From the NCBI GenBank assembly GCA_963766195.1, contig CAVXYY010000018.1, positions 81,753-145,752 on the forward strand: a DNA stretch of 64,000 nt, read 5' to 3'. The notes below the pieces were generated by a model. The model did no database searches. It saw only the letters and a list, made by a program, of their open reading frames with translations, and was not told the DNA's origin. The stretch comes from an uncultured Gammaproteobacteria bacterium (GTDB taxonomy: Bacteria > Pseudomonadota > Gammaproteobacteria > Xanthomonadales > SZUA-36). Position 1 is the first letter of the stretch, and each line of letters begins with the position of its first letter. Position numbers and translations under genes: made by a program. This document shows, one piece after another, positions 25,310 to 63,229 of the stretch.

Positions 25310-26455
25310 TCACAGAAGTCGTTTCCAGGCGCCGACCAGTTCATCAGCCGCCCGGTCAACGTGAATTTTCGTGGTGCCACGGCCGAGCGTCAGTCGAACG
25401 CTGCCCGCCGCTGATTCCAGCGGGATACCCATCGCCAGGATGACCGCGGACGCTGAGTCCTTTCCTTCGTGACAGGCAGAGCCAGTGGATGCGGCGACAG
25501 CCGGGCATTCCGCCAGCAGGGCATTGCCGGAAACCCCGGGAAAGCGGACGTTCAGCGTGTTGGGCAAACGATCGACGGGATGTCCGTTGAGGGCCAGGCC
25601 GGGAATCTGCCCGTTCAGACGGTCCCACAGGTGATCGCGCAGGGCGGTGATGCGCAAAGACTCCTTCGCCAGGTCCCGGTGTGCGATCGCGCAAGCCCGG
25701 CCCAGGCCGGCGATGGCGGCAACGTTTTCGGTGCCCGGGCGCAGGCCGCGTTCATGCCCGGCGCCCAGCAGCAAGGGTTCAATGCCGGTCCCGGAGCGAA
25801 CGAATAGTGCCCCGACGCCTTGCGGCGCGTAAAGCTTGTGCCCTGCAACCGACAACAGGTCCACCCCTTCGCGTCGCACGGATACGGCAACCTTGCCAAG
25901 AGACTGGGCTGCATCGGTATGCATCAGCGCGCCCGATGCATGGGCGATTCCGGCTATTTCACCAATGGCCTGCAGTGTGCCCGTTTCGCTGTTGGCATGC
26001 ATGACCGTGACCAGGAGGGTGTTCCCGCCAATGACCGAACGGATATCCGGCAGCTTCACGGCGCCCGCTTCATCCACGGCTACCCGGTCTACCTGGTACC
26101 CCTGGCCCTCGAGAAAAGCGCAGGGACCGGAGGTCGCCGGGTGCTCGATTACAGAGGTTACGATGTGCTGACGGCCGGGGTTTGCCGCGGCCACCCCCCG
26201 GATCGCCAGGTTGTTGGCTTCCGTCCCGCCCGAGGTGAAATAAATTTCCCTGGAATGACAATCGATCAGCCGGGCAAGTTGTTCGCGCGCCTGTTCCACG
26301 GCGTCGCGCATGGCCCGGCCATAGACGTGGGTGCTGGAAGGATTGCCATAGTGTTCCGACAGGTACGGCAGCATCGCTTCGAGCACTTCCGGCAACACCG
26401 GTGTGCTCGCATTGTGATCGAGATAGATGGGTTTGAGGAACCTCTGATCAGTCAT
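25310..26455 (-). CDS. Cysteine desulfurase (NifS/IscS-like class V aminotransferase)
   Basis: IYLDHNASTP, GNPSSTH, FTSGGTEANNLAIRG, the PLP lysine in SVAGHKLYAPQGVGALFVR, and the active-site loop ASTGSACHE. Confidence 0.88.
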   Translation of the reverse strand: MTDQRFLKPIYLDHNASTPVLPEVLEAMLPYLSEHYGNPSSTHVYGRAMRDAVEQAREQLARLIDCHSREIYFTSGGTEANNLAIRGVAAANPGRQHIVTSVIEHPATSGPCAFLEGQGYQVDRVAVDEAGAVKLPDIRSVIGGNTLLVTVMHANSETGTLQAIGEIAGIAHASGALMHTDAAQSLGKVAVSVRREGVDLLSVAGHKLYAPQGVGALFVRSGTGIEPLLLGAGHERGLRPGTENVAAIAGLGRACAIAHRDLAKESLRITALRDHLWDRLNGQIPGLALNGHPVDRLPNTLNVRFPGVSGNALLAECPAVAASTGSACHEGKDSASAVILAMGIPLESAAGSVRLTLGRGTTKIHVDRAADELVGAWKRLL

Positions 26456-26523: not shown

Positions 26524-26916
26524 TCAGGCAGTCTCCAGGCCGGCACTATAGGCGGCAAGATCCTCCATCATCCGCGCGTGCAGGTTTTTGCCTTTCTTGC
26601 TGAGCGACAGGCGACGGACCCGGCGGTCTGATTCGTCGATCACCTGTTTGATCCACCCCCGGCCGCCGCGGGTTTCACCAAGCTGGGAAATCACCCGGGA
26701 TACCGTCTTGGCCGAAAGCCCGGTCAATTGGGCAACCTCGATCTGGGTCGCGCCATCGTTACTGGCGACGCACCAGAATACCGCGTAACTGGAAAGTGAC
26801 GCCTCGGTCTGTCCCAGCAGTTTCAGCGGTTGTGAAAAGGCCCTGGAAAACAGGCCGGTCAATGCCCGTTCAGAAATGACACTGCTGACGCTGATGGGTT
26901 GGTCATTGTTGTTCAT
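26524..26916 (-). CDS. MarR-like winged-helix regulator
   Basis: 130 aa with an HTH (ATQIEVAQLTGLSAKTVSRVISQL) and a wing (DESDRRVRRLSLSKKG). It lies between the photoreceptor-like regulator and the cysteine desulfurase on the same strand. Confidence 0.75.
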   Translation of the reverse strand: MNNNDQPISVSSVISERALTGLFSRAFSQPLKLLGQTEASLSSYAVFWCVASNDGATQIEVAQLTGLSAKTVSRVISQLGETRGGRGWIKQVIDESDRRVRRLSLSKKGKNLHARMMEDLAAYSAGLETA

Positions 26917-26977: not shown

Positions 26978-27892
26978 TTATGACAGCAGTTCATCCATCA
27001 TCTGCAGGCCGTGGTCAATGTCCCGGCCCAGGGCCACAGCACCAGCACGGTTGATGGCATCAAATCCGTATACGGACGAAAGCCCCCCGACCAGGACCGG
27101 CACGCCGGCCTCGCTGACCAGCGCGGGCAGGCTTCTGGAAAGCGTCTTCAAAGAGGGTTCGATCGCACCGGAAAGGAGGATAGCCGAGCAACCTTTCATT
27201 TTTGCTACCGACGCCAGCTCTTCGAGCGGCATGTTGGCTCCGAGTGGAATGATGCGATAACCCGCGGCATCAGCCGCCAGGGCAAACAGAAGTAATCCAA
27301 TCTCGTGGTATTCACACGGCAGCCCTGCCAGCAAAACCAGCGGCCCGCTGTTTATACGTGACCGGTGATGATAGCGGGCACCCAGTTTGTTGCGCAGGTA
27401 GAAAGAGAAAAAATGTTCCTCGGCGATACTGCCTTCCTGGTCTACCCAGCGCAATCCCAATTCAATCAAAAGCGGCGTCAGGAGATTTCGTGTAACCAGC
27501 CCGATCGGATACAGCGACAGCGCCTCGTTGTAAATCTCCTCCAGGCGTACCTCGTCGAACGCAATGATCGCAGCGATCATATTGTTGAGGTAATTCCTCC
27601 AGACATCCGGTTTGCTGTCCTGGCTGGCTGATAAATCGCTTTCCAGCATACCTGGGCTGATCTGGCTGATGCGAACCCCCTGCTGGGTCAGGGCCGTGAT
27701 GCGGTTGATCTGGTCGATGTGCTCACGGGTATACAGCCGGTGACCACTGTCCTTCCTGACCGGCTCTATCAGGCCGTGCCGGCGCTCCCACGCGCGCAGC
27801 GTGATAGCGCCTACACCGGTCAGTTTCGATACGGTGCCAATCGTGTACAGCTTTTCGTCAGGGTAATCCGTCTCGTTTGCTTGTGCGTTCAT
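26978..27892 (-). CDS. carH: MerR-family regulator with a B12-binding domain (CarH/LitR-type light-responsive repressor)
   Basis: MerR HTH (YTIGTVSKLTGVGAITLRAWERRHGLIEP...GHRLYT). W149-x9-E159-H160 (RWVDQEGSIAEEHFF, nt 27413-27448). E-x-H-x-x-G (CEYHEIGLL, nt 27296-27313) followed by a Rossmann-like B12 domain. Confidence 0.8.
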   Translation of the reverse strand: MNAQANETDYPDEKLYTIGTVSKLTGVGAITLRAWERRHGLIEPVRKDSGHRLYTREHIDQINRITALTQQGVRISQISPGMLESDLSASQDSKPDVWRNYLNNMIAAIIAFDEVRLEEIYNEALSLYPIGLVTRNLLTPLLIELGLRWVDQEGSIAEEHFFSFYLRNKLGARYHHRSRINSGPLVLLAGLPCEYHEIGLLLFALAADAAGYRIIPLGANMPLEELASVAKMKGCSAILLSGAIEPSLKTLSRSLPALVSEAGVPVLVGGLSSVYGFDAINRAGAVALGRDIDHGLQMMDELLS

Positions 27893-27939
27893 TAGTAATC
27901 TCGTGGGAATTAGCTTTTAAAGAAATAATGCATTTGTAA

Positions 27940-27970
27940 ATACTATACATTATATATACACGTTTGGCAA
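27940..27970 (-). promoter_or_regulatory. Putative sigma70 promoter of the carH-like gene overlapped by two tandem 11-bp repeats
   Basis: Minus strand: TTGCCA (27970-27965), 17-nt spacer, TATAGT (27947-27942). Plus-strand repeats ATACTATACAT (27940-27950) and TATATATACAC (27951-27961) cover the spacer and -10. Confidence 0.5.
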
Positions 27971-27997
27971 AATAATTAAATAAACACAAAATAATAC

Positions 27998-28036
27998 TTG
28001 CAATAACTATACAGTAACTGTACATTACTTCATGCT
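27998..28036 (+). promoter_or_regulatory. Putative sigma70 promoter of the 28150-37493 operon overlapped by tandem 11-bp direct repeats (candidate CarH operator)
   Basis: TTGCAA (27998-28003), 17-nt spacer, TACATT (28021-28026). Repeats TAACTATACAG (28004-28014), TAACTGTACAT (28015-28025) and degenerate TACTTCATGCT (28026-28036). The first two fit nAnnTnnACAn exactly. Confidence 0.55.
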
Positions 28037-28149
28037 CCAGTAACGAAGAACGTTGACGGAGCTGAATTTAAGGCGGTTTTTAGACTTTTTCGGACCAGCG
28101 ACCGCCGCAGATGACACAAAAATTGTACAAAACTTAATAGGAGATTCAC

Positions 28150-29268
28150 ATGATCAAGGTAAAGGCCGCTGTCTCAACAGCCCTATTGATGACCATGAGT
28201 TCGTCTGCGTTTGCTGCAGCCAAGGTTGCCGTAGCGCACTTTGCGCCGTTCGCCGATACTGTCGACGGAACGGCTGTAAACATTTCAGTAAACGGAACCC
28301 CGGTCGATGCATTGCAGGGAGTCAAGTTCAAGGACTTTACCGGTTATATCGATTTTGACGCCGGCACTTACACGATCGACGTGATCCCGGTGGGAGCAAC
28401 CGATCCGGCGATTACAGGTGAGTTCACCCTTACCGATGGAACCAGCTACACGGTTTATGCAGCAGGTGACGGCGTGAAGCAGGACCTGGAGTTGCGCGCG
28501 CTGGTTGATGACACAACCACGCCGGCAGCCGGGAACCTGAACATCCGGGTAGTCCACGCCGCGCCATTCGCAGCCGACCTGGCAGCCACCGAGGTTTCCA
28601 TCCGCACTGCTGACGGGATGCTGGTTAACAACCTGACAGGCGTGCCTTACAACGTCGACAGCGGCTTTTTCGAAATACCTGCCGGCACTTACGACCTCAA
28701 GGTCGCTTCCAATGATGGTTCAGTGAACTACATTGATCCCCTTCCGGCTGCTTTGCCGGCCGGCGCCAATGTAACCGTGTATGCGGTCGGTGATGGCATG
28801 AACCAGCCCCTCGGTATTATTGCTTTCCCGGTCGGAGAACTGGCAACGCGCACTCCGGTTGACAACTCGACCAATGGAACCTGGGAAATCATCGAAGGGT
28901 CCGGCACCGGTTTTATCTTCCAGCCGATCCCTGCGCAGAATCGCGCCACGGGTACCTGGTACACCTATGATGCAGACGGAAACCCGCTGTTCCTCTCATT
29001 TGACAGCTGCCTGGAGCAGGTCAATGAAATGGGCGACTTCGAATGTTCCACCCCAGGCGCCTTTGATGGAGAAATGGCTACCACTTCACTGTACCTGAGC
29101 ACCGGTGGCGGCCCGTCTGAAGACGATGTGGTTGAAACTGTTAAAATTGGTGAGATTGACTTCGAGTTCTCGGGCTGCCTTGATGCCATGGCCACCGTGC
29201 GACTGGACGGTGAACCGGCCGCGATGTACACGGCTGCGAATCTGACCGCGGCATTCTGCAACGACTAG
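28150..29268 (+). CDS. Exported DUF4397-repeat protein with a Cys-containing C-terminal domain of unknown function
   Basis: Signal peptide (ALLMTMSSSAFAA). Two DUF4397-like repeats (VAHFAPFADT...YTVYAAGDG; VVHAAPFAADL...VTVYAVGDG). The C-terminal segment carries NGTWEIIEGSGTGFIF...GTWYTYDADGNPLFL. AGGAG RBS. Confidence 0.75.
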   Translation: MIKVKAAVSTALLMTMSSSAFAAAKVAVAHFAPFADTVDGTAVNISVNGTPVDALQGVKFKDFTGYIDFDAGTYTIDVIPVGATDPAITGEFTLTDGTSYTVYAAGDGVKQDLELRALVDDTTTPAAGNLNIRVVHAAPFAADLAATEVSIRTADGMLVNNLTGVPYNVDSGFFEIPAGTYDLKVASNDGSVNYIDPLPAALPAGANVTVYAVGDGMNQPLGIIAFPVGELATRTPVDNSTNGTWEIIEGSGTGFIFQPIPAQNRATGTWYTYDADGNPLFLSFDSCLEQVNEMGDFECSTPGAFDGEMATTSLYLSTGGGPSEDDVVETVKIGEIDFEFSGCLDAMATVRLDGEPAAMYTAANLTAAFCND

Positions 29269-29299
29269 TCATACCTCTTTACCAAAACAGGACTTACTG

Positions 29300-30382
29300 A
29301 TGAGCACAGCCGCTATCAAAGCATCAAGTACCGTCCTTGACTGGACAGAACGCGGCCTGGTGCCGGACAGCGTATTACGCGCCGGCATCAGGCGGCTCTG
29401 CCGTCAACGACTGAAGGACATCAGGGCGGGAGATATCGAAACCTCCGGCCATATGACGGAAGCCTTTATCGATTACATGAACGGGTCGGAGATTGCCCTC
29501 GTACCCGAACTTGCCAATGAACAGCACTACGAACTTCCGCCGGAGTTTTTCAGCACCGTGCTGGGCCATCACGCCAAGTACAGCTGTTGTTACTGGGGCG
29601 ACGGGGTCCGGACACTGGATCACGCCGAGGCCGCCGCACTGGAGATCAGTTGTCAGCGGGCAGACATCCGGAACGGCATGGATGTGCTGGATCTCGGCTG
29701 CGGCTGGGGTTCTTTAAGCCTCTGGATTGCCGCGCATTTTCCGGCATGCAAGGTCACCTCGGTCTCAAATTCAAAACCGCAGGGTGAATACATCCGGAAA
29801 CTGGCCCGGGAACGCGGTCTGTCCAATATTGAAGTGCTGACCGCCGACATGAACAACTTCCAGGCACCCGGGCAGTATGACCGCATCGTGTCCGTTGAAA
29901 TGTTCGAGCACATGAGGAATTACCGCGAGTTGTTTGCTCGCCTCAGCCAGTGGCTCAAGCCGGATGGAAAATTCTTCATGCACATTTTCTGTCACCGGAA
30001 CACGCCCTACGAATTTCTGGATGAGGGGCCGTCCGACTGGATGGGCCGTCATTTCTTTTCCGGTGGAATCATGCCCAGCGATGATCTGCCGCTGCGCTTC
30101 CAGGAACGGCTGCACCTTTTGAGGCGCGACCGCTGGAGCGGAAATCATTACGAAAAAACCGCAAATGCCTGGTTGGCCAACATGGACAGCAGGAAAGACC
30201 GCATCATGCCGATGTTTGCCGAGACATACGGGGAGGCGGACGCCGAGCGCTGGTTCCAGCGCTGGCGCATTTTCTTCATGGCCTGTGCGGAGCTGTTTGC
30301 CTTTAACAATGGTGAAGAGTGGTTTGTCTCACACTACCTGTTCGGTCTGCCGAGTCACACAGGTGAAGGAGCGCAGCCGTGA
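29300..30382 (+). CDS. SAM-dependent methyltransferase of the cyclopropane-fatty-acyl-phospholipid-synthase family
   Basis: HYELPPEFF, the SAM motif VLDLGCGWGSLSLWIA and VSVEMFEHM. Length 360 aa. Confidence 0.85.
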   Translation: MSTAAIKASSTVLDWTERGLVPDSVLRAGIRRLCRQRLKDIRAGDIETSGHMTEAFIDYMNGSEIALVPELANEQHYELPPEFFSTVLGHHAKYSCCYWGDGVRTLDHAEAAALEISCQRADIRNGMDVLDLGCGWGSLSLWIAAHFPACKVTSVSNSKPQGEYIRKLARERGLSNIEVLTADMNNFQAPGQYDRIVSVEMFEHMRNYRELFARLSQWLKPDGKFFMHIFCHRNTPYEFLDEGPSDWMGRHFFSGGIMPSDDLPLRFQERLHLLRRDRWSGNHYEKTANAWLANMDSRKDRIMPMFAETYGEADAERWFQRWRIFFMACAELFAFNNGEEWFVSHYLFGLPSHTGEGAQP

Positions 30383-30990
30383 TCAGGGTGGTGGTCAACC
30401 TGGCGGCGTCTGAAGCCGGTTGGCTTGCCTGCGTTTCCGGGGCAGCCAACGGCATGCCCTGGGCCGGTCCGCTGGTCGTGCTGGCATTTGTAGCGACTCA
30501 TCTGTGGTTGTCGAAACGGCCGGGCCCTGAATTAACACTGGTCATTCTGGCGGTATTGATCGGCCTGGTTGCAGACAGCGCTTTGGTTGTTACAGGTCTT
30601 GTCAGTTATCCCTCCGGAACCTGGATCGAAGGATTTGCGCCGTACTGGATTCTTGCCATGTGGGCGATGTTTGCAACCACTCTGAACGTCTCGATGAGAT
30701 GGTTGCGCAACCGTAATGCCCTGGCCGCTGCGCTGGGGGCGGTCTTCGGACCGCTGGCTTACCTCGCGGGCCAGGAGTTTGGCGCGATCACGTTCAACCG
30801 GACGGCTATGGCGATCGCTGCGCTTGCCGTCATCTGGGCTGTGGCGATGCCGCTTCTCGTGGTGCTGGCCCGCCGGCTGGATGGCGTCAGTGAAAAGAGG
30901 CCTCCGGACTTTATCCTGCGTGACTGGAGGACATCACGGGCGCCGCAGGCGACTCGCCGGCCCCGGTTGGGGGAGTCTGGCAATGCCTGA
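30379..30990 (+). CDS. DUF2878-type membrane protein
   Basis: Five hydrophobic helices. The GTG start overlaps the preceding stop. The family name is recalled from its frequent position next to cfa-like genes and was not verified. Confidence 0.65.
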   Translation: MIRVVVNLAASEAGWLACVSGAANGMPWAGPLVVLAFVATHLWLSKRPGPELTLVILAVLIGLVADSALVVTGLVSYPSGTWIEGFAPYWILAMWAMFATTLNVSMRWLRNRNALAAALGAVFGPLAYLAGQEFGAITFNRTAMAIAALAVIWAVAMPLLVVLARRLDGVSEKRPPDFILRDWRTSRAPQATRRPRLGESGNA

Positions 30991-31795
30991 GTTGAGCGCC
31001 TGGTTCTGGTCATTGCTCGCTGTGCTGATGGTGTCAGTAGTGGCGTGGCTGGTCAGTGTTGTCCGCCGTGATGTGAGCATCGTCGATAGCTTGTGGTCCC
31101 TGATGATCCTGCTGTGCGCGCTGGTCTACGTGGTTCTGGCCGAGGACACCGGCCCGCGGACCGTGATGTTAATCGCCCTGCTGTCAGCGTGGGCAATACG
31201 GCTTTCGCTCCACATTACCCTGCGTAACCACGGCCAGCCCGAAGACCGGCGATACGCGGAAATTCGCCGCAACAACCAACCGTACTTCGAATGGAAAAGC
31301 CTGTATATCGTATTCCTTTTCCAGGGTTTTTTGGCCTGGGTGATCTGTCTGCCCGTCGTCGCGGCTGTCGGCGGCCAGACACCACCCGGGCCGCTTGATT
31401 ATGCCGGGATCGCGCTGTGGATGGCCGGCATGTTTTTTGAAGTCACGGGTGACTACCAACTGGCCCGTTTCCGCCGCAGTGAGCGGACCTCCGACGAGGT
31501 GCTGGATACCGGCCTGTGGCGCTACACGCGGCATCCGAACTACTTCGGCGAGGCCGTAATCTGGTGGGGTTTTTACCTGCTGGCGCTTTCGGCTGGAGCG
31601 TGGTGGACCATTTTTGCCCCGTTACTGATGACCTTCCTGTTGTTGAAGGTATCAGGTGTTGCCATGCTGGAAAAAGATATCGCAGGGCGCCGGCCTGCAT
31701 ACCGCGACTATATCAGGCGAACCAATGCCTTCTTTCCGGGCCGGCCGAAATATGAAGCGCACCAGCCCGGTTCACAACACACTGGCGGAGGTTAG
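30983..31795 (+). CDS. DUF1295 / steroid-5-alpha-reductase-like membrane protein
   Basis: The ATG at 30983 overlaps the upstream gene by 8 nt. Contains GLWRYTRHPNYFGEAVIWWGFYLLA near the C-terminus. The tracked ORF start at 30716 is an out-of-context extension. Confidence 0.8.
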   Translation: MPELSAWFWSLLAVLMVSVVAWLVSVVRRDVSIVDSLWSLMILLCALVYVVLAEDTGPRTVMLIALLSAWAIRLSLHITLRNHGQPEDRRYAEIRRNNQPYFEWKSLYIVFLFQGFLAWVICLPVVAAVGGQTPPGPLDYAGIALWMAGMFFEVTGDYQLARFRRSERTSDEVLDTGLWRYTRHPNYFGEAVIWWGFYLLALSAGAWWTIFAPLLMTFLLLKVSGVAMLEKDIAGRRPAYRDYIRRTNAFFPGRPKYEAHQPGSQHTGGG

Positions 31796-31799
31796 CAGG

Positions 31800-32495
31800 A
31801 TGGAATACAGAAGAAACAAGCTGATTGAAGTGCTGGTCGCCTCCGGCCTGTCGATCGTTATGCTACTCGCAGCCGGGCCATCGTTCGCAGAACCGGCCCC
31901 TGGCGACGACGGAGCCATGGGAAGCGCGTGGAAATTCCGGGTGTACCTGGATGACAAGGAAATCGGCTACCACCACTTTTACCTCGCAGAATCGGGAAAT
32001 ACCCGGCAACTCAAGAGCGTCGCCAACTTTGAATACAACCTGATGTTTGTCCGCCTGTTTCATTATGAGCATGAGAACAACGAGATCTGGAATGGCGATT
32101 GCCTTCAGAGCATCGATTCACAAACCGATTCCAATGGCAAGCCGTTCCGGGTTAACGGCCGCCGCGCTGCCGGTGAATTCCGGGTTTCGGCCAATGGCGG
32201 TGAGGAATCGCTGCCGGAGTGTGTCATGACGTTTGCTTACTGGAATCCCGCGTTTCTCGAGCAGTCATCTTTGCTCAACTCCCAGGACGGTGAATTCCTC
32301 GAGGTCGAGGTTTCCGAGCCTGTTTTCGAACAACTGGAAGTCGAAGGTGCACAACTTCCGTCCTATCGCTATCATCTGGCCGCCGGCGCACTTAAACTCG
32401 ATCTGTGGTACTCCACGGACAGCAATTGGCTGGCCCTTGAAAGCGAAGTGCGGGGTGGCCGCATGCTTCGATACGTGAGGTATGATGATGCTTAG
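31800..32495 (+). CDS. Exported beta-rich protein of unknown function
   Basis: ATG at 31800 after GGAGG. Signal peptide (LVASGLSIVMLLAAGPSFAEP). I cannot confidently name a family. Confidence 0.6.
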   Translation: MEYRRNKLIEVLVASGLSIVMLLAAGPSFAEPAPGDDGAMGSAWKFRVYLDDKEIGYHHFYLAESGNTRQLKSVANFEYNLMFVRLFHYEHENNEIWNGDCLQSIDSQTDSNGKPFRVNGRRAAGEFRVSANGGEESLPECVMTFAYWNPAFLEQSSLLNSQDGEFLEVEVSEPVFEQLEVEGAQLPSYRYHLAAGALKLDLWYSTDSNWLALESEVRGGRMLRYVRYDDA

Positions 32496-33012
32496 AAAAT
32501 CACTGTTGAGCCTGTCCGGAGCAGTCCTGCTGTCAGGCTGCCAGGCCAGTCTGCCCGCACTCGAAACCGTCGATTACGTGGATCTCGAGCGCTTCATGGG
32601 GGACTGGTACGTGATTGCGAATATCCCGACCTTCGTCGAGAAAGGGGCGCATAACGCGGTGGAATCCTATCGCCTGGATGAAGACGGCACCATTGCCACG
32701 ACGTTTACTTTTCGGAAGGATGCTTTCGACGGGCCGGAGAAACAGTACCATCCGCGGGGCTTCGTGCGAGACACCCAAAGCAACGCCGAATGGGGTATGC
32801 AATTTATCTGGCCGTTCAAGGGCGACTACCGGATCATTTACCTGGCGGACGACTACTCTGCCACCATCATCGGGCGAACGAAGCGGGATTACGTGTGGTT
32901 GATGGCCCGCTCACCCGAGATGAGCGCTGACGCCTACCGCGAGGCGGTGCAATTTATCGAACGCGCCGGATACGATACGGCTGATTTGCAACGTGTTCCG
33001 CAGAAGTGGTGA
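32482..33012 (+). CDS. blc: Bacterial lipocalin (outer-membrane lipoprotein Blc-like)
   Basis: Lipobox LLSGC, then the lipocalin signature LERFMGDWYVIANIP and YRIIYLADDYSATIIG...YVWLMARSP. Confidence 0.85.
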   Translation: MMMLRKSLLSLSGAVLLSGCQASLPALETVDYVDLERFMGDWYVIANIPTFVEKGAHNAVESYRLDEDGTIATTFTFRKDAFDGPEKQYHPRGFVRDTQSNAEWGMQFIWPFKGDYRIIYLADDYSATIIGRTKRDYVWLMARSPEMSADAYREAVQFIERAGYDTADLQRVPQKW

Positions 33013-33016
33013 CGCC

Positions 33017-34321
33017 TTGAAAATTGCAATCATCGGCACCGGGATTGCCGGAAACGTAGCCGCTTACCGCCTGGCGCAACAACATGACATCACGGTTTTC
33101 GAAGCCGATAGCCGTATCGGCGGCCACACCAACACGGTTGATGTCGTTGCCGCCGGCCAACGGTGGGCCGTGGACACCGGGTTCATCGTATTCAATAACG
33201 TCACTTACCCGAACTTCATTTCCCTGCTCGATGAACTGGGGGTTGATTCCCAGGACAGTGACATGAGTTTCAGTGTCCGCAATGAGCGCAATGGCCTGGA
33301 ATACAATGGAGCCTCGCTCAACGCCCTGTTCGCCCAGCGCACAAACCTGCTGAAGCCCTCCTTTTACCGGATGTTGGCGGATATCCTGCGCTTTAACCGG
33401 GAAGCGCCGGCGCTGCTTGACCAGCCGGGCAACCCGGTAACCCTGGGTGAATACCTGGATTCAAACGGTTACTCAAAAGGTTTTATTGACCACTATATCG
33501 TTCCCATGGGCGCGGCGATCTGGTCTGCTACCCCGGGTGGAATGCGGGCTGTTCCGGCGACGTTCTTCATCCGCTTTTTCCACAACCACGGTTTGCTGTC
33601 GGTTAATCAGCGTCCCGTATGGCGGGTGGTCAGGGGCGGCTCGCGGAGCTACGTGGAAAAACTGGTGGCCGGACACCGGGACCGGATTCGCCTCGATACA
33701 CCGGTAGAATGGATTCGCCGGCATCCCGGGTATGTTGAAGTCAAGGCCAGGGGTGCGGCGGTGGAGAAGTTTGACCGTATTTTCCTGGCTTGCCACAGCG
33801 ACCAGGCTCTGGAACTCCTCGCTGACCCGACTCCCGAGGAACGCGCCGTTCTGGGCGCTATCCGCTACCAGCAAAACGAGGCGGTCCTTCACACCGACCA
33901 GTCACTGATGCCAAAGCGGCGCCTGGCATGGGCGGCCTGGAATTACCATATTCCGCAAGGCGCCTCGGATCCGGAAGGCAAGGCCGCTCTGACCTACAAC
34001 ATGAATATCCTGCAAAGCCTTGCCGCGCCGGTGCAGTTTTGCGTCACGTTGAATTACACGGCGGCAATCGATCCGGGCAAGATCATCCAGACCTTCAACT
34101 ATACGCACCCGGTTTTCACCGAAAAAGCGGTTGCTGCCCAGCAACGTCACCGCGAAATCAACGGTGCGCGCCGGACCTATTTCTGTGGCGCCTACTGGCG
34201 CTATGGTTTTCATGAAGACGGCGTGGTCAGTGCGATTGCCGCACTGGATCATTTCAACGCAGACGGGGCCGGTTCTGAGAGTCTATATCATGAAGAGCGC
34301 GATTTACGCCGGGCGGGTTAG
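33017..34321 (+). CDS. FAD-dependent oxidoreductase (amine-oxidase / phytoene-desaturase-like)
   Basis: Dinucleotide fold KIAIIGTGIAGNVAAYRL...VFEA..RIGGHT. The start is taken at TTG 33017, 5 nt after the blc stop. GTG at 32993 is an alternative. Confidence 0.85.
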   Translation: MKIAIIGTGIAGNVAAYRLAQQHDITVFEADSRIGGHTNTVDVVAAGQRWAVDTGFIVFNNVTYPNFISLLDELGVDSQDSDMSFSVRNERNGLEYNGASLNALFAQRTNLLKPSFYRMLADILRFNREAPALLDQPGNPVTLGEYLDSNGYSKGFIDHYIVPMGAAIWSATPGGMRAVPATFFIRFFHNHGLLSVNQRPVWRVVRGGSRSYVEKLVAGHRDRIRLDTPVEWIRRHPGYVEVKARGAAVEKFDRIFLACHSDQALELLADPTPEERAVLGAIRYQQNEAVLHTDQSLMPKRRLAWAAWNYHIPQGASDPEGKAALTYNMNILQSLAAPVQFCVTLNYTAAIDPGKIIQTFNYTHPVFTEKAVAAQQRHREINGARRTYFCGAYWRYGFHEDGVVSAIAALDHFNADGAGSESLYHEERDLRRAG

Positions 34322-35066
34322 GCACCGGCGCATCAAGCCGGTCGCGCATGAGTTCAGCTACCGGATGTTCATGATGTATCTCGATCTGGCCGAGCTTCCG
34401 GAAGTTTTCCAGGGACGCTGGCTCTGGTCCTCTCGCAGGCCGGCACTGGCCCGGTTCCGTCGCGAAGACCACCTCGGTGATCCTGCCGTGCCACTTGCAG
34501 ACGCTGTCCGGGATCTTGTCCGCGTTAAAACAGGGCAACGCCCTTCCGGGCCGATCCGGTTACTGACCCAGTTGAGCTATTTTGGGTACGTTTTTAATCC
34601 GGTGAGCTTTTATTATTGTTATAACGCGGACGACACCGAATTGGAGACCATCGTGGCCGAGGTGAATAACACCCCCTGGGGTGAAAGGCACTGCTACGTG
34701 CTGTCACCGGACATGAATCAGGGTGTCGCCGGCCACAAGCGCTATTTTCCGCCGAAAGAGATGCACGTGTCGCCATTCATGCCAATGGACATCGACTATG
34801 ACTGGCGTTTCAATACACCCAATGAAGAATTAACGGCGCACATGGAGAATGCTCGCGAGGGGTGCAAGATATTTGACGCTACGATCGTGCTGCAGCGGGA
34901 GGAAATCAGTGGCCGCTCCCTGGCGCGCGTGCTATTTACTTTTCCCTTGATGACCGTAAAAATAATCCTGGCCATCCATTGGCAGGCTCTGAAGCTCTGG
35001 GGCAAGGGCGTCCCGGTGCATGATCATCCCGCTAAAGGCAAACCCGGACTGGAGAGTGCAGGATGA
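34290..35066 (+). CDS. DUF1365-family protein
   Basis: The ATG at 34290 gives MKSAIYAGRVRHRRIKPVAHEFSYRMFMMYLDLAEL, the typical DUF1365 N-terminus. It overlaps the oxidoreductase gene by 32 nt. Confidence 0.8.
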   Translation: MKSAIYAGRVRHRRIKPVAHEFSYRMFMMYLDLAELPEVFQGRWLWSSRRPALARFRREDHLGDPAVPLADAVRDLVRVKTGQRPSGPIRLLTQLSYFGYVFNPVSFYYCYNADDTELETIVAEVNNTPWGERHCYVLSPDMNQGVAGHKRYFPPKEMHVSPFMPMDIDYDWRFNTPNEELTAHMENAREGCKIFDATIVLQREEISGRSLARVLFTFPLMTVKIILAIHWQALKLWGKGVPVHDHPAKGKPGLESAG

Positions 35067-36325
35067 AGTCTGTTTCGCTTTCGTCGCCACGCCACCTTGC
35101 AGGCACCGTCAAGCCGACCATGCTGGATAACCTGGCCCGCCGTTCGGTGCGGCGGCAGCTTGAAAAACTGGACACCGGCTCACTCAGCCTGGTCGATGGG
35201 GCGCAGGAGCTTCGATTCGGGCCGGCCAACCCTTCCGGGGTCAGCGCGCACCTTCGGGTAAAAGATCCGAGGTTCTACAGCGAAATCGCATTCGGCGGGT
35301 CAATCGGTGGCGGTGAAGCCTACATGCACGGCTACTGGGACTGCGACGACCTGGTGTCCGTAGTCCGCCTGCTGTTACAAAACCGGCATGTGCTGGATGG
35401 CATGGAAAAAGGCATTGCTCGTGTGACCGAACCGCTGCAAAAACTGTTTCACTGGGTCAATCGAAATACGCACGAGGGAGCGCGCCGGAATATCTCTGCG
35501 CACTACGACCTGGGTAATGAATTCTTCGCCTTGTGGCTGGACGAAACAATGATGTATTCGGCAGCCATTTTCGAAAATCAGCAAACCAGTCTGCACGATG
35601 CTCAAATCGCGCGCATGAAGCATATCTGTGAGCGTTTACAGCTCAAGCCCGATGAGCACCTCGTGGAAATTGGCACGGGCTGGGGAAGTTTTGCCCTCTA
35701 TGCGGCGCAAAACTACGGTTGCCGGGTCACCACCACGACCATTTCGCGCGAACAGTACGAGAAAGCCAAAGAGCGGGTCGCGCAAGCCGGCCTGGAAGAC
35801 CGCATTTCTGTGCTGTTCGAGGATTTCCGGAATCTCGAAGGTCAATACGACAAGCTGGTTTCGATAGAAATGATCGAGGCAATCGATCATGCCTTGTTTG
35901 ATACGTATTTCAGCAAGTGCAGCCAATTGTTAAAAGCGGATGGCGTCATGCTGATCCAGGCGATCACCATCGCGGACCAGCGTTACGAGGAATATCGCAG
36001 ATCGATCGACTTCATCCAGCGCTACATATTCCCCGGCAGCGGGCTGCCGTCATCGGCCGTTATGACCGATTGCGTCGCCCGCATGACCGACATGCGCCTG
36101 CTGGGCATCGAAGACATTGGTCTGCACTACGCCACGACGCTGAACCACTGGCGCAAAAACTTTTTCGCGCAGATCGACGAGGTCAGGCAGCAGGGCTTTT
36201 CGGAAGCGTTTATCCGGATGTGGGAATACTATCTTTGCTATTGTGAAGGTGCTTTTCTGGAGCGCGCAATTTCCGATGTGCAGATCCTGTTCGCCAAGCC
36301 CGAAAGCCGGTTGAAAACCCTTTAG
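35063..36325 (+). CDS. cfa: Cyclopropane-fatty-acyl-phospholipid synthase
   Basis: HYDLGNEFFALWLD.TMMYSAAIF, the SAM motif LVEIGTGWGSFALYAA, and SIEMIEAI...YFSKC. Length 420 aa with an ATGA overlap upstream. Confidence 0.9.
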   Translation: MKSVSLSSPRHLAGTVKPTMLDNLARRSVRRQLEKLDTGSLSLVDGAQELRFGPANPSGVSAHLRVKDPRFYSEIAFGGSIGGGEAYMHGYWDCDDLVSVVRLLLQNRHVLDGMEKGIARVTEPLQKLFHWVNRNTHEGARRNISAHYDLGNEFFALWLDETMMYSAAIFENQQTSLHDAQIARMKHICERLQLKPDEHLVEIGTGWGSFALYAAQNYGCRVTTTTISREQYEKAKERVAQAGLEDRISVLFEDFRNLEGQYDKLVSIEMIEAIDHALFDTYFSKCSQLLKADGVMLIQAITIADQRYEEYRRSIDFIQRYIFPGSGLPSSAVMTDCVARMTDMRLLGIEDIGLHYATTLNHWRKNFFAQIDEVRQQGFSEAFIRMWEYYLCYCEGAFLERAISDVQILFAKPESRLKTL

Positions 36326-36335
36326 GAGAAGGCCC

Positions 36336-36842
36336 TTGAGTTCCCGCATGGTCGTCGTGAAGGACCGGATGCAATCCGGTTACCATTACCTGTGCACGGA
36401 ACCCGAGGGTCGGAACTTCCACCCGGAATTCAAACCGGAGCTGACCCCGGCGCAAATGCTCGAGATGGGCGTTTTCGGTGGAAAATACCTGACCGACTGC
36501 CAGCAGGAGTTTCCCGCTGAGTGGTTTCAGAAGGCCAAGCTGAGCCCGGAGAAAGCAAACCACCGCCTCAATTTCTTCGGGGTCCATGCCTCCAAGCCCC
36601 TGGCTTACTGGATCGAAAAAGGCTGGATCTGGCCGGAAGATCCGCGGGGCTGGTTTCAGTGGTACTGCCGTTATTACATGGGCCGCCGTTGTGACGACGA
36701 TGCCCGGCAGATCGGGCGCTGGAAAGCCATGACAAGGCACATTGCACAGCTTCGCAAGAACTGCATCAAGGGTGATTTGCTGTGCCGGCCCAGGCAACGC
36801 CAGGCCCTGCTCCACTGGGCCTACGATTCGCGCAAGTTTTGA
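36336..36842 (+). CDS. Trp/Cys-rich conserved hypothetical protein
   Basis: 168 aa (GVFGGKYLTDCQQEFPAEWF...DPRGWFQWYCRYYMGRR). TTG start 7 nt after AGGAG. Its codon usage resembles its neighbours, but I did not recognise a family. Confidence 0.6.
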   Translation: MSSRMVVVKDRMQSGYHYLCTEPEGRNFHPEFKPELTPAQMLEMGVFGGKYLTDCQQEFPAEWFQKAKLSPEKANHRLNFFGVHASKPLAYWIEKGWIWPEDPRGWFQWYCRYYMGRRCDDDARQIGRWKAMTRHIAQLRKNCIKGDLLCRPRQRQALLHWAYDSRKF

Positions 36843-36872
36843 TCAGCGCAACAAACTACCTGAGGTAAAAAA

Positions 36873-37493
36873 ATGAAGAAAGGGCTGATGGCTTTGGCTT
36901 TTGGAACGCTTGCAATTGTGGCTGAAAGACTTCCTGCAATTGAGGAAGCAGAGTACCTGGTCGTTCAGAAATCCGGGGATATCGAGCTGCGTGATTACTC
37001 GCCATCCATCGTGGCTGAAACGCTGGTCAAGGATGATTTTGAAGACGCCGGCAGCAAGGCGTTCAAAAAATTGTTCAAGTACATCTCAGGTGCAAACACG
37101 GCGCAGGACAAAATTGCGATGACCTCGCCGGTGGCACAGGAAAAACGCCCGGAAAAAATCGCAATGACCTCACCTGTCGGCCAGCGGGCGGCAACAGAGG
37201 GTTGGGCGGTGAGTTTCATGATGCCAGCGAGCTACACAATGGACACGATCCCCAGCCCAACAGACCCGCAGGTTGTGATCCGTGAAATTCCGGCCTATCG
37301 CGCGGCTGTTATTCAGTACTCGGGTCGCTGGACCGAAAAAAATTTCCAGGAACACCTCGCGCTTCTCCAGGACTGGATGGTGAAAAGTGAGATACGGGCA
37401 GCCGGAGAGCCGGTATGGGCCCGATACGATCCACCCTTCAAGCCTTGGTTCATGCGGCGCAACGAAATCCTGATTCCCGTTCAACAGCAGTGA
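36873..37493 (+). CDS. SOUL/HEBP-family haem-binding-like protein (exported)
   Basis: Signal peptide. YEVR-like start (EYLVVQKSGDIELRDY), FKKLFKYISGAN and a duplicated KIAMTSPV motif, with the C-terminal NEILIPV typical of SOUL proteins. Confidence 0.8.
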   Translation: MKKGLMALAFGTLAIVAERLPAIEEAEYLVVQKSGDIELRDYSPSIVAETLVKDDFEDAGSKAFKKLFKYISGANTAQDKIAMTSPVAQEKRPEKIAMTSPVGQRAATEGWAVSFMMPASYTMDTIPSPTDPQVVIREIPAYRAAVIQYSGRWTEKNFQEHLALLQDWMVKSEIRAAGEPVWARYDPPFKPWFMRRNEILIPVQQQ

Positions 37494-37532
37494 GACTCTG
37501 AAGCAGGCGCCGGCCTTGGTGGAGCGCCTGTA

Positions 37533-37553
37533 GGAGCGGCCCATGGCCGCGAT
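37533..37553 (+). repeat. REP-like element
   Basis: CCTGTA-GGAGCGGCCCATGGCCGCGAT lies 40 nt after the SOUL-gene stop and is identical to the units at 15720 and 17535. Confidence 0.7.
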
Positions 37554-37781
37554 TGAGAACTCCAAACCCGGTAAGAAACCGGGTGTCTGTCGGCGGGACA
37601 AGCGCGAGACTCCCTGGCCGCTTTTCAGCTGTTCCGGACAGCTAAAAGTCCCGACAACGGCCCCCGGTCAGTCACCTGTTCTTGTTGCCGCCGGTCAACA
37701 TTGCGCTCTATTTACAATATAGCGGACTTGTGACAATCTACTCGCGCGTTGGGCCCTGCGGCCCGGTCGAGGTTATCGGCG

Positions 37782-55950: not shown

Positions 55951-56238
55951 AATTGAAGGCCGCATTGATGGCCCTCATCCGTTTGGATTTGCACCGATCC
56001 ATCATGAAACGGCGGCTTACATGATATTGCTGTGGAATCTTGGAGTCGTTGACGTAGAAAGGAGAAAGACGCCAACTGGCTCTATGCAGTAAGAGAATTT
56101 AGTCAGGAAGACAAAGTAAACTGGATCCTTTCACTGCCCGATGCCAGCGAACATTTACTTAAGGAAGGCAGTTTTATTTTTCCGGTAACGCAATGTGTAA
56201 CGATGATGGTAAAAGTAGGCGAAACAGAAAGTGGCTGA
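55924..56238 (+). pseudogene. Possible frame-shifted coding remnant
   Basis: Three consecutive short open frames read MRQQKALTGN*, then PEIEGRIDGPHPFGFAPIHHETAAYMILLWNLGVVDVERRK..., then ...KEKDANWLYAVREFSQEDKVNWILSLPDASEHLLKEGSFIFPVTQCVTMMVKVGETESG*. They look protein-like, but I cannot name a family. Confidence 0.2.
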
Positions 56239-56340
56239 GCCTCTTTTTGAAAAGAAAGAACTGGAAATAGCATTTGAAAAATGTATTCCTTTTGATTTTG
56301 TAAGAAGAAAGGCAAAGGATTTTATTTTATTAAAAGTAGA

Positions 56341-56364
56341 CTGTACAGTGTACGCTGTACAGTG
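56341..56364. repeat. Direct repeat CTGTACAGTG-tacg-CTGTACAGTG
   Basis: Two exact 10-bp copies lie 4 bp apart, each containing the palindrome TGTACA, within an AT-rich non-coding stretch. Confidence 0.5.
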
Positions 56365-56598
56365 AAAAAATAGTATTGCCCTTCGTTTACTACTTACATA
56401 TTATTGTTGTGGCATGTCGGTAGCTATGATTCCATTTGTATAGCAGTACGTTTACTGTGCTGTTATTTTTTTATCTTACTGATTCCCATTCAATTGCCTC
56501 AATGCCTGATGAAAGCCGGTGAATCATTTAAAATAAATACAACTTGAGCTTATGGGATCAACTGGAAGGTTTAGGTCAGCCATCGTTAGTTGGGATCT

Positions 56599-56631
56599 GA
56601 AAAACCCTGGCTCATATTGCATGAACCAGGG
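56599..56631 (-). terminator. Rho-independent terminator after the 56642-56929 gene
   Basis: The minus strand reads CCCTGGTTCA-tgcaata-TGAGCCAGGG (9/10 paired) followed by TTTTT. Confidence 0.6.
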
Positions 56632-56641
56632 CAGCATTTAT

Positions 56642-56929
56642 CTAGTCGACCAACTCTATCTCAATAGCCGAATGAACACGGATATTTTTATTCAACATTT
56701 TTGCCTCTTCAAAAACGGATTCAAGATATTTACCCATTTCCTTTAGTTCAACTACCCGTTGCCTGGAAAACAGATCCGGTTTTCCAAAACGTTCTTCGGA
56801 GCTCCAGTTACGCAGGTTATGAAAATTAATTTTACTGTGGATCATCTGCATAAGCATTTCTCTTATATCTCTTATTTCCACAGTGTCAAATGTACCTTCA
56901 ATAAGTTTTAATGTTTCAGTCTTTGTCAT
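56642..56929 (-). CDS. Small hypothetical protein, paralogue of 57141-57383
   Basis: 95 aa. Shares L-x-LIEG-x-F...E..DI...M....KI.FH and a C-terminal N-I-x-x-x-A-I-x motif with the 80-aa protein upstream. Confidence 0.5.
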   Translation of the reverse strand: MTKTETLKLIEGTFDTVEIRDIREMLMQMIHSKINFHNLRNWSSEERFGKPDLFSRQRVVELKEMGKYLESVFEEAKMLNKNIRVHSAIEIELVD

Positions 56930-57113
56930 AGCTATTTTGTTTTTTGTTATTATTGATTCCTGGAGTCCAGCACATACCGATTAAGGAGAGCAGGGCCAGG
57001 GAAGTAAAAAATTTATTTCCCAGTGCATCTGTTGTTGTATATGAATAAATAAATCCCATTACAAAAAGGATGGCACAGACCAATAGCAGGAAATTTTGTT
57101 TGAATCGTTGCAT
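56916..57113 (-). CDS. Small two-TM membrane protein (hypothetical)
   Basis: 65 aa with two hydrophobic segments (FLLLVCAILFVMGFIY; FFTSLALLSLIGMCW). It overlaps the downstream gene by 14 nt. Confidence 0.4.
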   Translation of the reverse strand: MQRFKQNFLLLVCAILFVMGFIYSYTTTDALGNKFFTSLALLSLIGMCWTPGINNNKKQNSYDKD

Positions 57114-57140
57114 GTTTTATTTTTTAATATTTAGGGAATA

Positions 57141-57383
57141 TCAATTCATCTGTATAGCGGCGTTGATATTTACTCCGGCCGTCTGGCTCTTCATGTGCTG
57201 CCTGAGTTGATCCAGTTCATGCTGCAGACTTTTTATCTTTTTTTCCCTCATTTTAATATCTTCCTGGTTATGGTTATTATTAATTTTCTCTTCGTGAAAC
57301 TTAATCTTTACCGCTACCATTTTTGAAATGATATCAATACTTTCAGCTGGTGTAAATTTTCCTTCAATTAATGTCAGGTTCAT
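57141..57383 (-). CDS. Small hypothetical protein, paralogue of 56642-56929
   Basis: 80 aa with an N-terminal LTLIEGKFTPAESIDIISKMVAVKIKFH and a central coiled-coil-like region. It lies 11 nt downstream of icd. Confidence 0.5.
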   Translation of the reverse strand: MNLTLIEGKFTPAESIDIISKMVAVKIKFHEEKINNNHNQEDIKMREKKIKSLQHELDQLRQHMKSQTAGVNINAAIQMN

Positions 57384-57394
57384 GGTTTATCAGT

Positions 57395-58831: not shown

Positions 58832-58890
58832 ACTGTTTGTTTTTTGTTTTACGGGGCAAAAATGAATGTTTTAATCCATAAGCTTTTATT

Positions 58891-58898
58891 TAACTTTG
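58891..58898 (+). promoter_or_regulatory. Bacteroidota-type -7 promoter motif TAnnTTTG
   Basis: TAACTTTG lies about 25 nt upstream of the LysR-gene ATG at 58923, and no Shine-Dalgarno sequence precedes the start. Confidence 0.4.
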
Positions 58899-58922
58899 CT
58901 ATGGTTATTATAAAAATTATTT

Positions 58923-59846: not shown

Positions 59847-59891
59847 ATCATGATTATGTAGAAAAGTACTTTTTGTATAGGGGAAGGTTTT

Positions 59892-60626: not shown

Positions 60627-60655
60627 TGAGCGGCAAGATAAAGAAGACAGTTAGT

Positions 60656-62360: not shown

Positions 62361-62496
62361 TATTAAATAATTATTTACAAACCCTGTATGTGCCTATGTG
62401 GGAAAAAATTAACTGAATACTTATCAATAAATATAGTTTTGTCGGGTAGAAAATTACAGCTTATCTTTTATTGTTTAACCATTAAAAATAATAAGT

Positions 62497-63123: not shown

Positions 63124-63144
63124 TATATAATTGAAAATAAGAAC

Positions 63145-63199: not shown

Positions 63200-63229
63200 T
63201 ACCTATCCTGCCTATAACATCAAGCAACT

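Follow-up and report, generated by a model that had tools for sequence, protein, structure and literature searches.

A predicted B12-dependent CarH regulator beside a candidate furan fatty acid operon in an uncultured gammaproteobacterium

Introduction

An eleven-gene operon (28150–37493, plus strand) carrying candidates for all four known enzymes of furan fatty acid (FuFA) synthesis is located next to a divergent gene for a predicted B12-dependent photoreceptor of the CarH/LitR family, in a 64,000-nt stretch of DNA from an uncultured Gammaproteobacteria bacterium (assembly GCA_963766195.1, contig CAVXYY010000018.1, positions 81,753 to 145,752). This whole stretch is referred to as the window. 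We read the locus as a light-derepressed membrane-protection operon that would make FuFA under CarH control, and a probability of about 0.7 is given to this reading. Regulation by light through CarH is the part regarded as quite likely; the FuFA chemistry is also probable, with rather less confidence. B12 binding, the response to light, a single transcript and the lipid products are what we infer from the sequence. FuFA are membrane antioxidants, acting there as scavengers of singlet oxygen and of radicals. Their synthesis in bacteria has been elucidated in two alphaproteobacteria alone, in which it is under sigmaE-ChrR control.

Results

Organization of the operon

All eleven open reading frames (g01 to g11) were found on the plus strand, in agreement with the first-pass annotation of this DNA, which had described a co-directional array with gaps of less than 32 nt or overlaps. 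The intergenic distances from g01 to g11 are 31, −4, −8, 4, −14, 4, −32, −4, 10 and 30 nt. A 257-bp AT-rich spacer (27893–28149) parts g01 from the divergent MerR/B12-binding gene. Four of the genes are candidates for FuFA enzymes. The first, g02 (29300–30382), encodes a 360-aa CMAS-fold methyltransferase (Pfam) that was placed in the coclaurine N-methyltransferase (CNMT)/LIME1/FufM-like subfamily by PDB comparison and a tree. It is followed further downstream by g07 (33017–34321; Pfam Amino_oxidase and NAD_binding_8), a candidate UfaD-type FAD-dependent fatty-acyl desaturase, by g08 (34290–35066; Pfam DUF1365, 292.6 bits), a candidate UfaO-type protein for O2-dependent furan-ring formation, and by g09 (35063–36325; Pfam CMAS, 290 bits, tree and residues), a 420-aa candidate UfaM-type fatty-acyl methylase.

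The divergent regulator has the hallmarks of a class I CarH

The gene transcribed away from the operon (26978–27892, minus strand) encodes a 304-aa protein with a MerR helix-turn-helix and a predicted adenosylcobalamin (AdoB12)-binding part, a candidate carH/litR class I photoreceptor-repressor (Pfam MerR_1, 58 bits; B12-binding_2, 39.6 bits; B12-binding). Its best PDB matches were Thermus thermophilus LitR (3WHP) and CarH (5C8D), with an E-value of 1.5e-26 and residues 14–253 aligned. The published hallmarks of CarH are a RxWERRY-like helix, the Wx9EH motif that sets CarH apart from the B12-independent CarA, and the B12 motif D/ExHx2G/P-x41-SxT/V-x22-27-GG (PMC9304148). In the window's protein the recognition helix RAWERRH (residues 33–39) keeps RxWERR intact, and W149-x9-E159-H160 is an intact Wx9EH, aligned with the same motif of 3WHP. 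The B12 motif reads E194-Y-H196-E-I-G199-x41-SGA-x25-GG, with A at the position where the published motif has T/V. A cobalamin riboswitch and a PduO-type adenosyltransferase are present in the window's genome, and CobA/BtuR was not found there. The assignment of the regulator to class I CarH/LitR, as an AdoB12 photoreceptor-repressor, is thus well supported at the level of its sequence. That the operon is wired to a B12 photoreceptor, as had been proposed earlier, is borne out at the same level by these hallmarks, by tandem operators over both promoters and by a genus-wide regulon.

Putative tandem operators overlap both predicted promoters of the spacer

Published CarH operators are tandem 11-bp repeats, 5′-nnnnTnnACAn-3′, with the −35 element held in one repeat (PMC9304148), and two putative operators fitting this design were found on the plus strand in the spacer. 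Operator A (27929–27961), located by eye, promoter scan and pattern search, lies over the carH promoter and comprises three 11-bp direct repeats, two of them full and one degenerate, with TATACA at 27944 and 27955. Its core, TATACA-TTATA-TATACA (27944–27960), sits between the −35 TTGCCA and the −10 TATAGT of the carH promoter predicted by the scan on the minus strand (27970..27942, 10/12 matches). It is retained at three of the related loci described below (L002, L031 and L035). Operator B (27993–28026), located by eye, pattern search and alignment, lies over the operon promoter; a degenerate repeat that holds the −35 is followed by TATACA at 28008 and TGTACA at 28019, 11 bp apart. The arrangement is TTGCAA (−35, 27998–28003)-ATAAC-TATACA-GTAAC-TGTACA-TT, and a −10-like TACATT (28021–28026) follows the −35 with a 17-nt spacer.

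The consensus TTGCAWTAnnTRTACAnnnnnTRTACATT was unchanging across five aligned orthologous spacers whose flanking proteins are 60–90% identical. The invariant columns of these alignments were exactly TTGCA, T-TAC(A) and the ribosome-binding-site positions, while the intervening spacers varied. When the motif TRTACA-N5-TRTACA was searched in the window, two matches were obtained against 0 expected, both of them in the 257-bp spacer. In the 3.9-Mb genome there were four matches, compared with 0.8 expected from block shuffles, and none of 40 shuffles reached four.

A single conserved TGTACAAAAC (28124–28133, plus strand) precedes the ribosome-binding site of g01 by about 16 nt in the window and in L002, L031, L035 and L013; it could be another element or one more point of contact for CarH. 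Conservation is also seen in the operon's 5′ leader (28040–28120), which the window shares with L002 and L035 (GTTGACGGAGCTGAATTTAAGGCGG...ACCGCC) and in which GGCGGT and ACCGCC could pair as a hairpin. An Rfam scan of 27700–28400 for structured RNA gave only a sub-threshold PrfA match (23 bits; gathering score 88), and we propose no riboswitch here.

The operator motif marks a small predicted regulon in a genome where ChrR was not found

The other two operator-motif sites of the genome were found at C14:95262-97800, between folX-folE and a divergent exported glutathione peroxidase gene with a gene for a short-chain dehydrogenase/reductase (SDR), and at C1:482803-483481, 60 nt upstream of an exported fasciclin-domain gene. 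Twelve relatives were searched for the same motif. The motif was present throughout the genus, in all eight of the other genomes, and in none of the four genomes from other families of the order, and the reversed-pattern control gave 0–2 matches. Most of the fetched sites (21 of 27) lie at orthologs of the three targets, namely carH/DUF4397, folX-folE/glutathione peroxidase(-SDR) and fasciclin. Five further sites in congeneric genomes (L299, L312, L301, L306 and L310) stand beside UbiG-like, MiaE-like, COQ7-like di-iron hydroxylase, RND membrane-fusion and ABC ATPase genes; these could be lineage-specific members of the regulon or chance matches.

ChrR, an anti-sigma factor that is encoded with its ECF sigma factor and usually lies divergent from ufaD, was not found in the window's 3.9-Mb genome (91.7% complete) with the TIGR02451 profile, which did match a Caulobacter control. 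The lack of a sigmaE/ChrR pair, remarked upon earlier for the window, hence extends to the whole assembly. The sigmaE-ChrR regulon of Shewanella includes pgpD, an SDR gene and cfa (PMC4336711), and SDR and fasciclin genes stand beside chrR in a Qingshengfaniella locus (L082). In Pseudomonas, the light regulon of class II LitR contains phrB, ufaM, folE, folX and folM (PMC9758184). Because the operator motif marks the folX-folE/glutathione peroxidase-SDR and the fasciclin genes in addition to the operon, CarH appears to have taken over a gene set that is under sigmaE-ChrR elsewhere.

g07 and g08 are candidates for UfaD and UfaO

In Cereibacter (Rhodobacter) sphaeroides, UfaM is RSP2144, UfaD is RSP1091, a protein of the FAD-oxidoreductase type, and UfaO is RSP1090, a DUF1365 protein (PMC7380195). 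All three genes are within the sigmaE-ChrR regulon (PMC7380195; PMC3546557), so that the roles of the two families and their regulon, as given in the first-pass annotation, agree with the published work. The CFA-like gene that follows ufaO, RSP1089, is not needed for FuFA, nor are RSP1088 and RSP1087 (PMC7380195). The order in Rhodopseudomonas palustris is ufaD-ufaO-ufaM (RPA2571-RPA2570-RPA2569), where RPA2569 is a functional UfaM; a second methylase, FufM (RPA0924), 26% identical to UfaM, yields the dimethyl furan acid (PMC7380195).

Comparisons were carried out with proxies from Rhodobacterales loci recognized by their arrangement, either chrR-rpoE divergent from an FAD oxidoreductase-DUF1365(-CMAS) array or a methylase directly 3′ of a photolyase, as in RSP2143-RSP2144. 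The only match in the window's genome for the chrR-linked FAD oxidoreductases was g07, at 41–42% identity; over the chrR-linked counterparts as a whole the identity is 40–46%. The g07 protein has an amine-oxidase fold, with LkcE as the nearest solved structure, and its gene is immediately upstream of the DUF1365 gene g08. In the same way, g08 was the sole match in the genome for the chrR-linked DUF1365 proteins and keeps 34 of the 60 columns that are invariant among eleven Rhodobacterales sequences. Both DUF1365 and the FAD oxidoreductase/DUF1365 pair are present as a single copy in this genome.

The two methylases belong to different subfamilies

A maximum-likelihood tree of 62 CMAS-family proteins was constructed. 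Together with all the other long methylases adjacent to DUF1365 genes, g09 shares a clade with the phrB-adjacent and the chrR-operon methylases of Rhodobacterales (SH-aLRT, a likelihood-ratio branch support, 97), and outside this UfaM/RSP1089-type clade fall E. coli Cfa and also a Cfa-like paralog from Rhodobacterales. Against the NCBIfam equivalog for E. coli Cfa, g09 scored 283.6 bits, under the cut-off of 400, and g02 scored 156.7 bits. Residues were then compared in the alignment at the bicarbonate-site positions of E. coli Cfa, which we take to be C139, E239, H266, I268 and Y317. Cfa-like proteins retain C-E-H-I-Y at these positions, while throughout the clade of g09 position 266 is Gln and position 139 is Ser/Ala; g09 itself reads A-E-Q-I-Y and g02 reads C-E-H-F-Y. 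The g09 protein is about 35% identical to the UfaM-type proxies, and its position after the ufaO-type gene is the same as that of RPA2569.

Owing to the placement in this clade, the H266Q change and the sub-cut-off Cfa score, g09 is a candidate UfaM-type methylase and not a canonical Cfa; on the tree it is co-orthologous to both alphaproteobacterial paralogs, the UfaM and the RSP1089 types. A housekeeping role as canonical Cfa, the label under which this 420-aa protein had first been entered, is rejected on the same score, tree position and residue.

For g02, the best solved relatives over the full length were the plant coclaurine N-methyltransferase 6GKV (246 bits) and pavine N-methyltransferase (208), with E. 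coli Cfa at 115, and in the tree it falls in a separate long-branched clade (SH-aLRT 100). FufM occurs in only some of the organisms that bear UfaM, UfaD and UfaO. The Arabidopsis protein LIME1 is presumably CNMT-like. LIME1 is 37.9% identical to FufM (PMC10940516). From the CNMT-like similarity together with this identity, g02 is best read as FufM-type, a candidate furan-ring methylase for the conversion of 9M5-FuFA to 9D5-FuFA. The 360-aa protein had been put forward as the UfaM candidate; this is rejected on its separate clade and its higher CNMT than Cfa scores, and the UfaM-type candidate is g09 instead. With g09 as the UfaM type and g02 as the FufM type, alongside g07 and g08, each of the four known FuFA enzymes therefore has a candidate in the operon.

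Accessory genes of the operon

The remaining seven genes, all on the plus strand, were assigned mainly by Pfam. At the head of the operon, g01 (28150–29268) encodes an exported DUF4397 protein (102.6 bits) with a signal-peptide-like N-terminus. The DUF2878 protein g03 (30379–30990; 147 bits, hydrophobic segments) and the polytopic DUF1295 protein g04 (30983–31795; 225.9 bits), which is steroid-5-alpha-reductase/PEMT/ICMT-like (Steroid_dh 7.8e-11) with five hydrophobic segments, are integral membrane proteins. They are followed by g05 (31800–32495, with a possible alternative start at 31752), an exported DUF6134 protein (158.5 bits) with a signal-peptide-like N-terminus, and by g06 (32482–33012), a Blc-like lipocalin lipoprotein (Lipocalin_2, 145 bits) with the lipobox LLSGC, which scored 76 bits against the NCBIfam Blc subfamily, under its cut-off of 267. 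The last gene, g11 (36873–37493), encodes a SOUL/HEBP-family protein (SOUL, 166.9 bits) with an N-terminal signal-like segment. The DUF4397, DUF6134, Blc lipocalin and SOUL proteins are exported or lipid-anchored, as judged by their N-termini. The gene labels given earlier agree with Pfam, except that the ‘exported unknown’ g05 is a DUF6134 protein and that ‘canonical Cfa’ does not hold for g09.

The seventh accessory protein, g10 (36336–36842), has 168 residues, belongs to an unnamed family and gave no Pfam or NCBIfam match. Its family comprises at least 8000 homolog clusters at 90% identity, all of 168 aa and all annotated as ‘hypothetical’, and at 50% identity there are 2353 representatives with E ≤ 1e-3. 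Cys, Trp and Arg are abundant in the protein, and the conserved motifs of the family include DPRGWFQWYCRYY and CRPRQRQALL. An AlphaFold model with a 45-sequence alignment had a mean confidence (pLDDT) of 96.3; a model with 9 sequences (39.7) was discarded. The predicted fold had no match in PDB by Foldseek, and one unnamed viral homolog, A0A6B7ERE2, was found with a TM score of 0.71. The g10 protein is predicted to be cytoplasmic and of a new fold. Homologues of 54–58% identity adjoin the FAD oxidoreductase-DUF1365 cluster in Rhodobacterales (L091, L096 and L123), the gene thus being linked to the cluster in both Gammaproteobacteria and Alphaproteobacteria.

Conservation of the cluster in other genomes

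Related loci, at least 80 in number, were gathered by a scan with the DUF1365 protein and the window proteins were then compared with them by tblastn. The nearest are from metagenome-assembled genomes (MAGs) of uncultured Gammaproteobacteria/‘Lysobacterales’, at 89% identity. An eight-gene core emerged from this comparison, in the order short methylase-DUF2878-DUF1295-DUF6134-Blc-FAD oxidoreductase-DUF1365-long methylase. This order is kept in dozens of genomes belonging to several phyla, including Woeseiaceae, Methylophilaceae, Burkholderiales and others, which argues that the arrangement is not due to chance. In Planctomycetota, Latescibacterota, Gemmatimonadota and others, the halves are rearranged as (short methylase + DUF1295) and (FAD oxidoreductase + DUF1365 + long methylase).

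Homologues of g02 always adjoin DUF1295, with or without DUF2878. The DUF4397, g10 and SOUL genes are confined to close relatives among the related loci; g01 is found beside carH within the genus and, among the related loci, only in L002, L013 and L035. At 24 of 51 related loci (L008, L020, L033, L054 and others), a gene for a membrane fatty-acid desaturase of about 325 aa, with HRYFSH histidine boxes, lies just upstream of the FAD oxidoreductase gene. The window operon lacks this desaturase, and a separate CMAS-plus-desaturase pair is present in the same genome at C5:500815-503322.

In 10 of the 51 related loci from several phyla whose flanks sufficed, a CarH-type gene lies no more than 2.5 kb away from the cluster, where it is divergent or else opens the operon. 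All 10 retain Wx9EH, those from Latescibacterota and Acidobacteriota included. At other loci, ECF (extracytoplasmic function) sigma factors, two-component systems or photolyases are found in place of the CarH-type gene.

Neighbouring genes and other features of the window

Downstream of carH, on the same minus strand, are a MarR-like gene (26524–26916; weak Pfam match) and a class-V aminotransferase/cysteine-desulfurase-like gene (25310–26455; Pfam). The order aminotransferase-MarR-like-CarH is kept in L002 and L031, and MarR-like-CarH is kept in L035 and in congeneric genomes. Both genes are possibly co-transcribed with carH, which would be autoregulated.

About 700 nt of non-coding DNA lie 3′ of g11. 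Just after the SOUL stop codon (37494–37560) are two GC-rich hairpins (CAGGCGCC...GGAGCGCCTG; GCGGCC-CAT-GGCCGC) resembling repetitive extragenic palindromic elements. A clear intrinsic terminator was not found past g11, the GC hairpins being without a T-run (z-score −1.08). Towards the end of the window (56000–64000) there is a steep drop in G+C, from about 0.58 to about 0.36. The genes in this part look housekeeping (isocitrate dehydrogenase, a LysR regulator, a histidine kinase and a pseudouridine synthase), and the stretch could be a chimeric join in the MAG assembly or a foreign island.

Discussion

Proposed mechanism

In the dark, an oligomer of AdoB12-bound CarH would sit on the tandem 11-bp TnnACA repeats covering the −35/−10 elements of the operon promoter (27993–28026) and of the carH promoter (27929–27961). 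As both promoters would be covered in this manner, sigma-70 RNA polymerase would be blocked. Light in the near-ultraviolet to green range would split the Co-C bond of AdoB12, the CarH oligomer would dissociate and both promoters would fire. The UfaM-type g09 would then convert cis-vaccenoyl chains of phospholipids to 11-methyl-12-trans-octadecenoate, from which the UfaD-type flavoprotein g07 would form a conjugated diene. The UfaO-type g08 would insert an oxygen atom from O2 and close the furan ring, giving 9M5-FuFA, and the FufM/CNMT-like g02 would add a second methyl group to yield 9D5-FuFA. Most plausibly, the accessory proteins would act in the envelope on lipids that have been modified or damaged, handling or distributing them, or would do the same for tetrapyrrole photosensitisers.

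A more extended version, in which the seven accessory genes and the four Ufa/Fuf enzymes form one light-induced pathway, can also be considered. The dimethyl FuFA would be made in the inner membrane and moved across the periplasm to the outer membrane (or oxidised lipids or tetrapyrroles removed), and B12-CarH would be a wholesale replacement for sigmaE-ChrR in this lineage. In this full form the proposal is doubtful.

Evidence against the proposal and alternative explanations

Several observations weigh against a CarH-controlled FuFA operon. On the side of regulation, the Rossmann domain of the regulator is a weak match (Pfam B12-binding 27.1 bits, under the cut-off of 32.1), and up to about one of the four genomic matches to the operator motif could be due to chance. 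Neither a photolyase nor a carotenoid gene was found with the predicted CarH regulon, which is unusual for CarH/LitR. No photolyase/cryptochrome gene was found anywhere in the genome by tblastn with a cluster-linked photolyase (E < 1e-5), although a gene may be missing from an assembly that is 91.7% complete. On the side of chemistry, the synteny-defined Rhodobacterales proxies stood in for Q3J4I7 (UfaM), Q3IYV7 (UfaD) and Q3IYV8 (UfaO), and plant enzymes for Q6NBA4 (FufM). The identity of g08 to its DUF1365 proxies is only 28–31%. Further, g09 is equally related to the UfaM and the RSP1089 types, and deletion of RSP1089 leaves FuFA unaffected (PMC7380195). The link between g02 and FufM is indirect, passing through plant CNMT/LIME1.

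Regulation could be as described and the chemistry different, the products being mid-chain methyl-branched, methylene, cyclopropane or other oxygenated lipids and not FuFA. By analogy, g02 and the reductase-like DUF1295 protein could then be a methylenation/reduction pair, as in tuberculostearate synthesis, and g09 could resemble the non-essential RSP1089. The low identity of g08 and the equal nearness of g09 to the dispensable RSP1089 type are in line with this possibility. So are the Cfa-like C-E-H-F-Y kept by g02, its constant pairing with a Steroid_dh-matching DUF1295 protein, and the membrane desaturase inserted in nearly half of the related loci, which hints at variation in substrate. 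However, RPA2569, which occupies exactly the position of g09 after ufaD-ufaO, is a functional UfaM, the FAD oxidoreductase/DUF1365 pair is single-copy in the genome, and the UfaD-UfaO-methylase trio is kept as a unit across phyla. A different chemistry is considered unlikely.

It could also be that the MerR/B12 regulator is no photoreceptor. It would then sense the availability of cobalamin or some other signal, redox state for instance, or work through a partner in the way class II LitR works through LOV proteins, and the operon would be an envelope-stress or nutrient-linked unit. The B12-binding domain's sub-cut-off score and the failure to find a photolyase gene in the genome fit this explanation, and CarA-like and class II–V LitR relatives do operate without B12 photochemistry (PMC9304148; PMC9758184). 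Against it, the Trp of Wx9EH is intact, as are the His ligand and what remains of the B12 motif, the alignment of the regulator with CarH 5C8D runs end to end, and the operators have the tandem-repeat design of CarH. The glutathione peroxidase, folE/folX, SDR, fasciclin and ufa genes also match the content of published light and singlet-oxygen regulons. Such a regulator is quite improbable here.

Equally improbable is a division of the eleven genes into two or more separately transcribed modules (g01–g06 and g07–g11), of which only the first would be CarH-controlled: in other phyla the order of the two modules does vary and they can lie on opposite strands, R. sphaeroides is reported to have a possible internal promoter before RSP1089 (PMC7380195), and a promoter-like match lies at 32348–32375 (such matches being no commoner than in shuffled sequence), but all junctions measure −32 to +31 nt, with 6 of 10 overlapping or of 4 nt or less, no terminator-like site within the operon rises above shuffle expectation, and the gap-free eight-gene order recurs in many relatives.

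Comparison with known systems

The FuFA pathway of R. sphaeroides and R. palustris employs the same families as the CarH-linked operon, an FAD oxidoreductase, a DUF1365 protein and two CMAS-fold methylases of different subfamilies, and the ufaD-ufaO-methylase order is identical to that of R. palustris. Identities are modest, about 42% for the UfaD-type, 30% for the UfaO-type and 35% for the UfaM-type proxies. The window differs in having all four candidates in one operon with seven extra genes, and in lacking an SDR gene in that operon; the SDR gene is at the second CarH-marked locus. With the sigmaE-ChrR regulon of R. sphaeroides, Caulobacter, Vibrio and Shewanella (RpoE2), the targets overlap strongly (ufa-type lipid genes, periplasmic glutathione peroxidase, SDR and fasciclin), whereas the window's genome is without a detected ChrR and has sigma-70-like promoters under putative repressor operators, with no promoter of the sigmaE type proposed. 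The input here would be light and not a damage signal.

The regulator shares with the class I LitR/CarH proteins of T. thermophilus, Bacillus megaterium, Myxococcus xanthus and Streptomyces the domain order, RxWERR, Wx9EH, the His-ligand B12 motif and a divergent, autoregulated arrangement. Its recognition helix ends in H and not in Y, and its predicted targets are membrane-lipid, folate/pterin and peroxidase genes in place of carotenoid genes, with no crt or photolyase gene seen in the regulon. Closest in regulon content are class II LitR (PplR/PmlR with short LOV partners, in Pseudomonas putida/mendocina) and class III LitR (Burkholderia multivorans), for which light induction of a phrB-SDR-FAD-oxidoreductase-ufaM cluster and of folE/folX/folM has been described (PMC9758184). 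The content of those regulons is nearly the same as that predicted for the window. They differ in having no functional B12 domain and in working through a LOV partner or by an unknown mechanism, whereas the window's regulator has the full AdoB12 signature, with which a LOV partner would not be needed.

The first-pass annotation had presented the placing of this chemistry under direct light control as what differs at this locus. The wiring to a B12 photoreceptor stands at sequence level, but the novelty was overstated, LitR-family control of ufaM clusters by light having already been published for the non-B12 classes (PMC9758184). In the searchable literature we found no case in which a B12-dependent CarH of class I controls a FuFA-type operon together with a ChrR-like regulon that has no carotenoid genes. 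Since light control of ufaM clusters by class II/III LitR is already published, the finding is best classed as a new regulatory variant, the B12-class CarH form of this control, with both modules and LitR-family control of ufaM clusters already known.

Implications

With the FuFA gene set placed behind a B12 photoreceptor, the trigger would move from damage (singlet oxygen) to its cause (light). If the extended version is true, the cell would anticipate photo-oxidative damage from light instead of reacting to singlet oxygen. CarH-type regulation would be widened beyond carotenoids to lipid, pterin and peroxidase genes. The short operator/promoter region and its repressor make a candidate green/blue-light switch for Gram-negative hosts. 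Finally, the operon would tie DUF2878, DUF1295, DUF6134, DUF4397 and the g10 family to the physiology of the membrane under photo-oxidative conditions, and offers a route to testing them.

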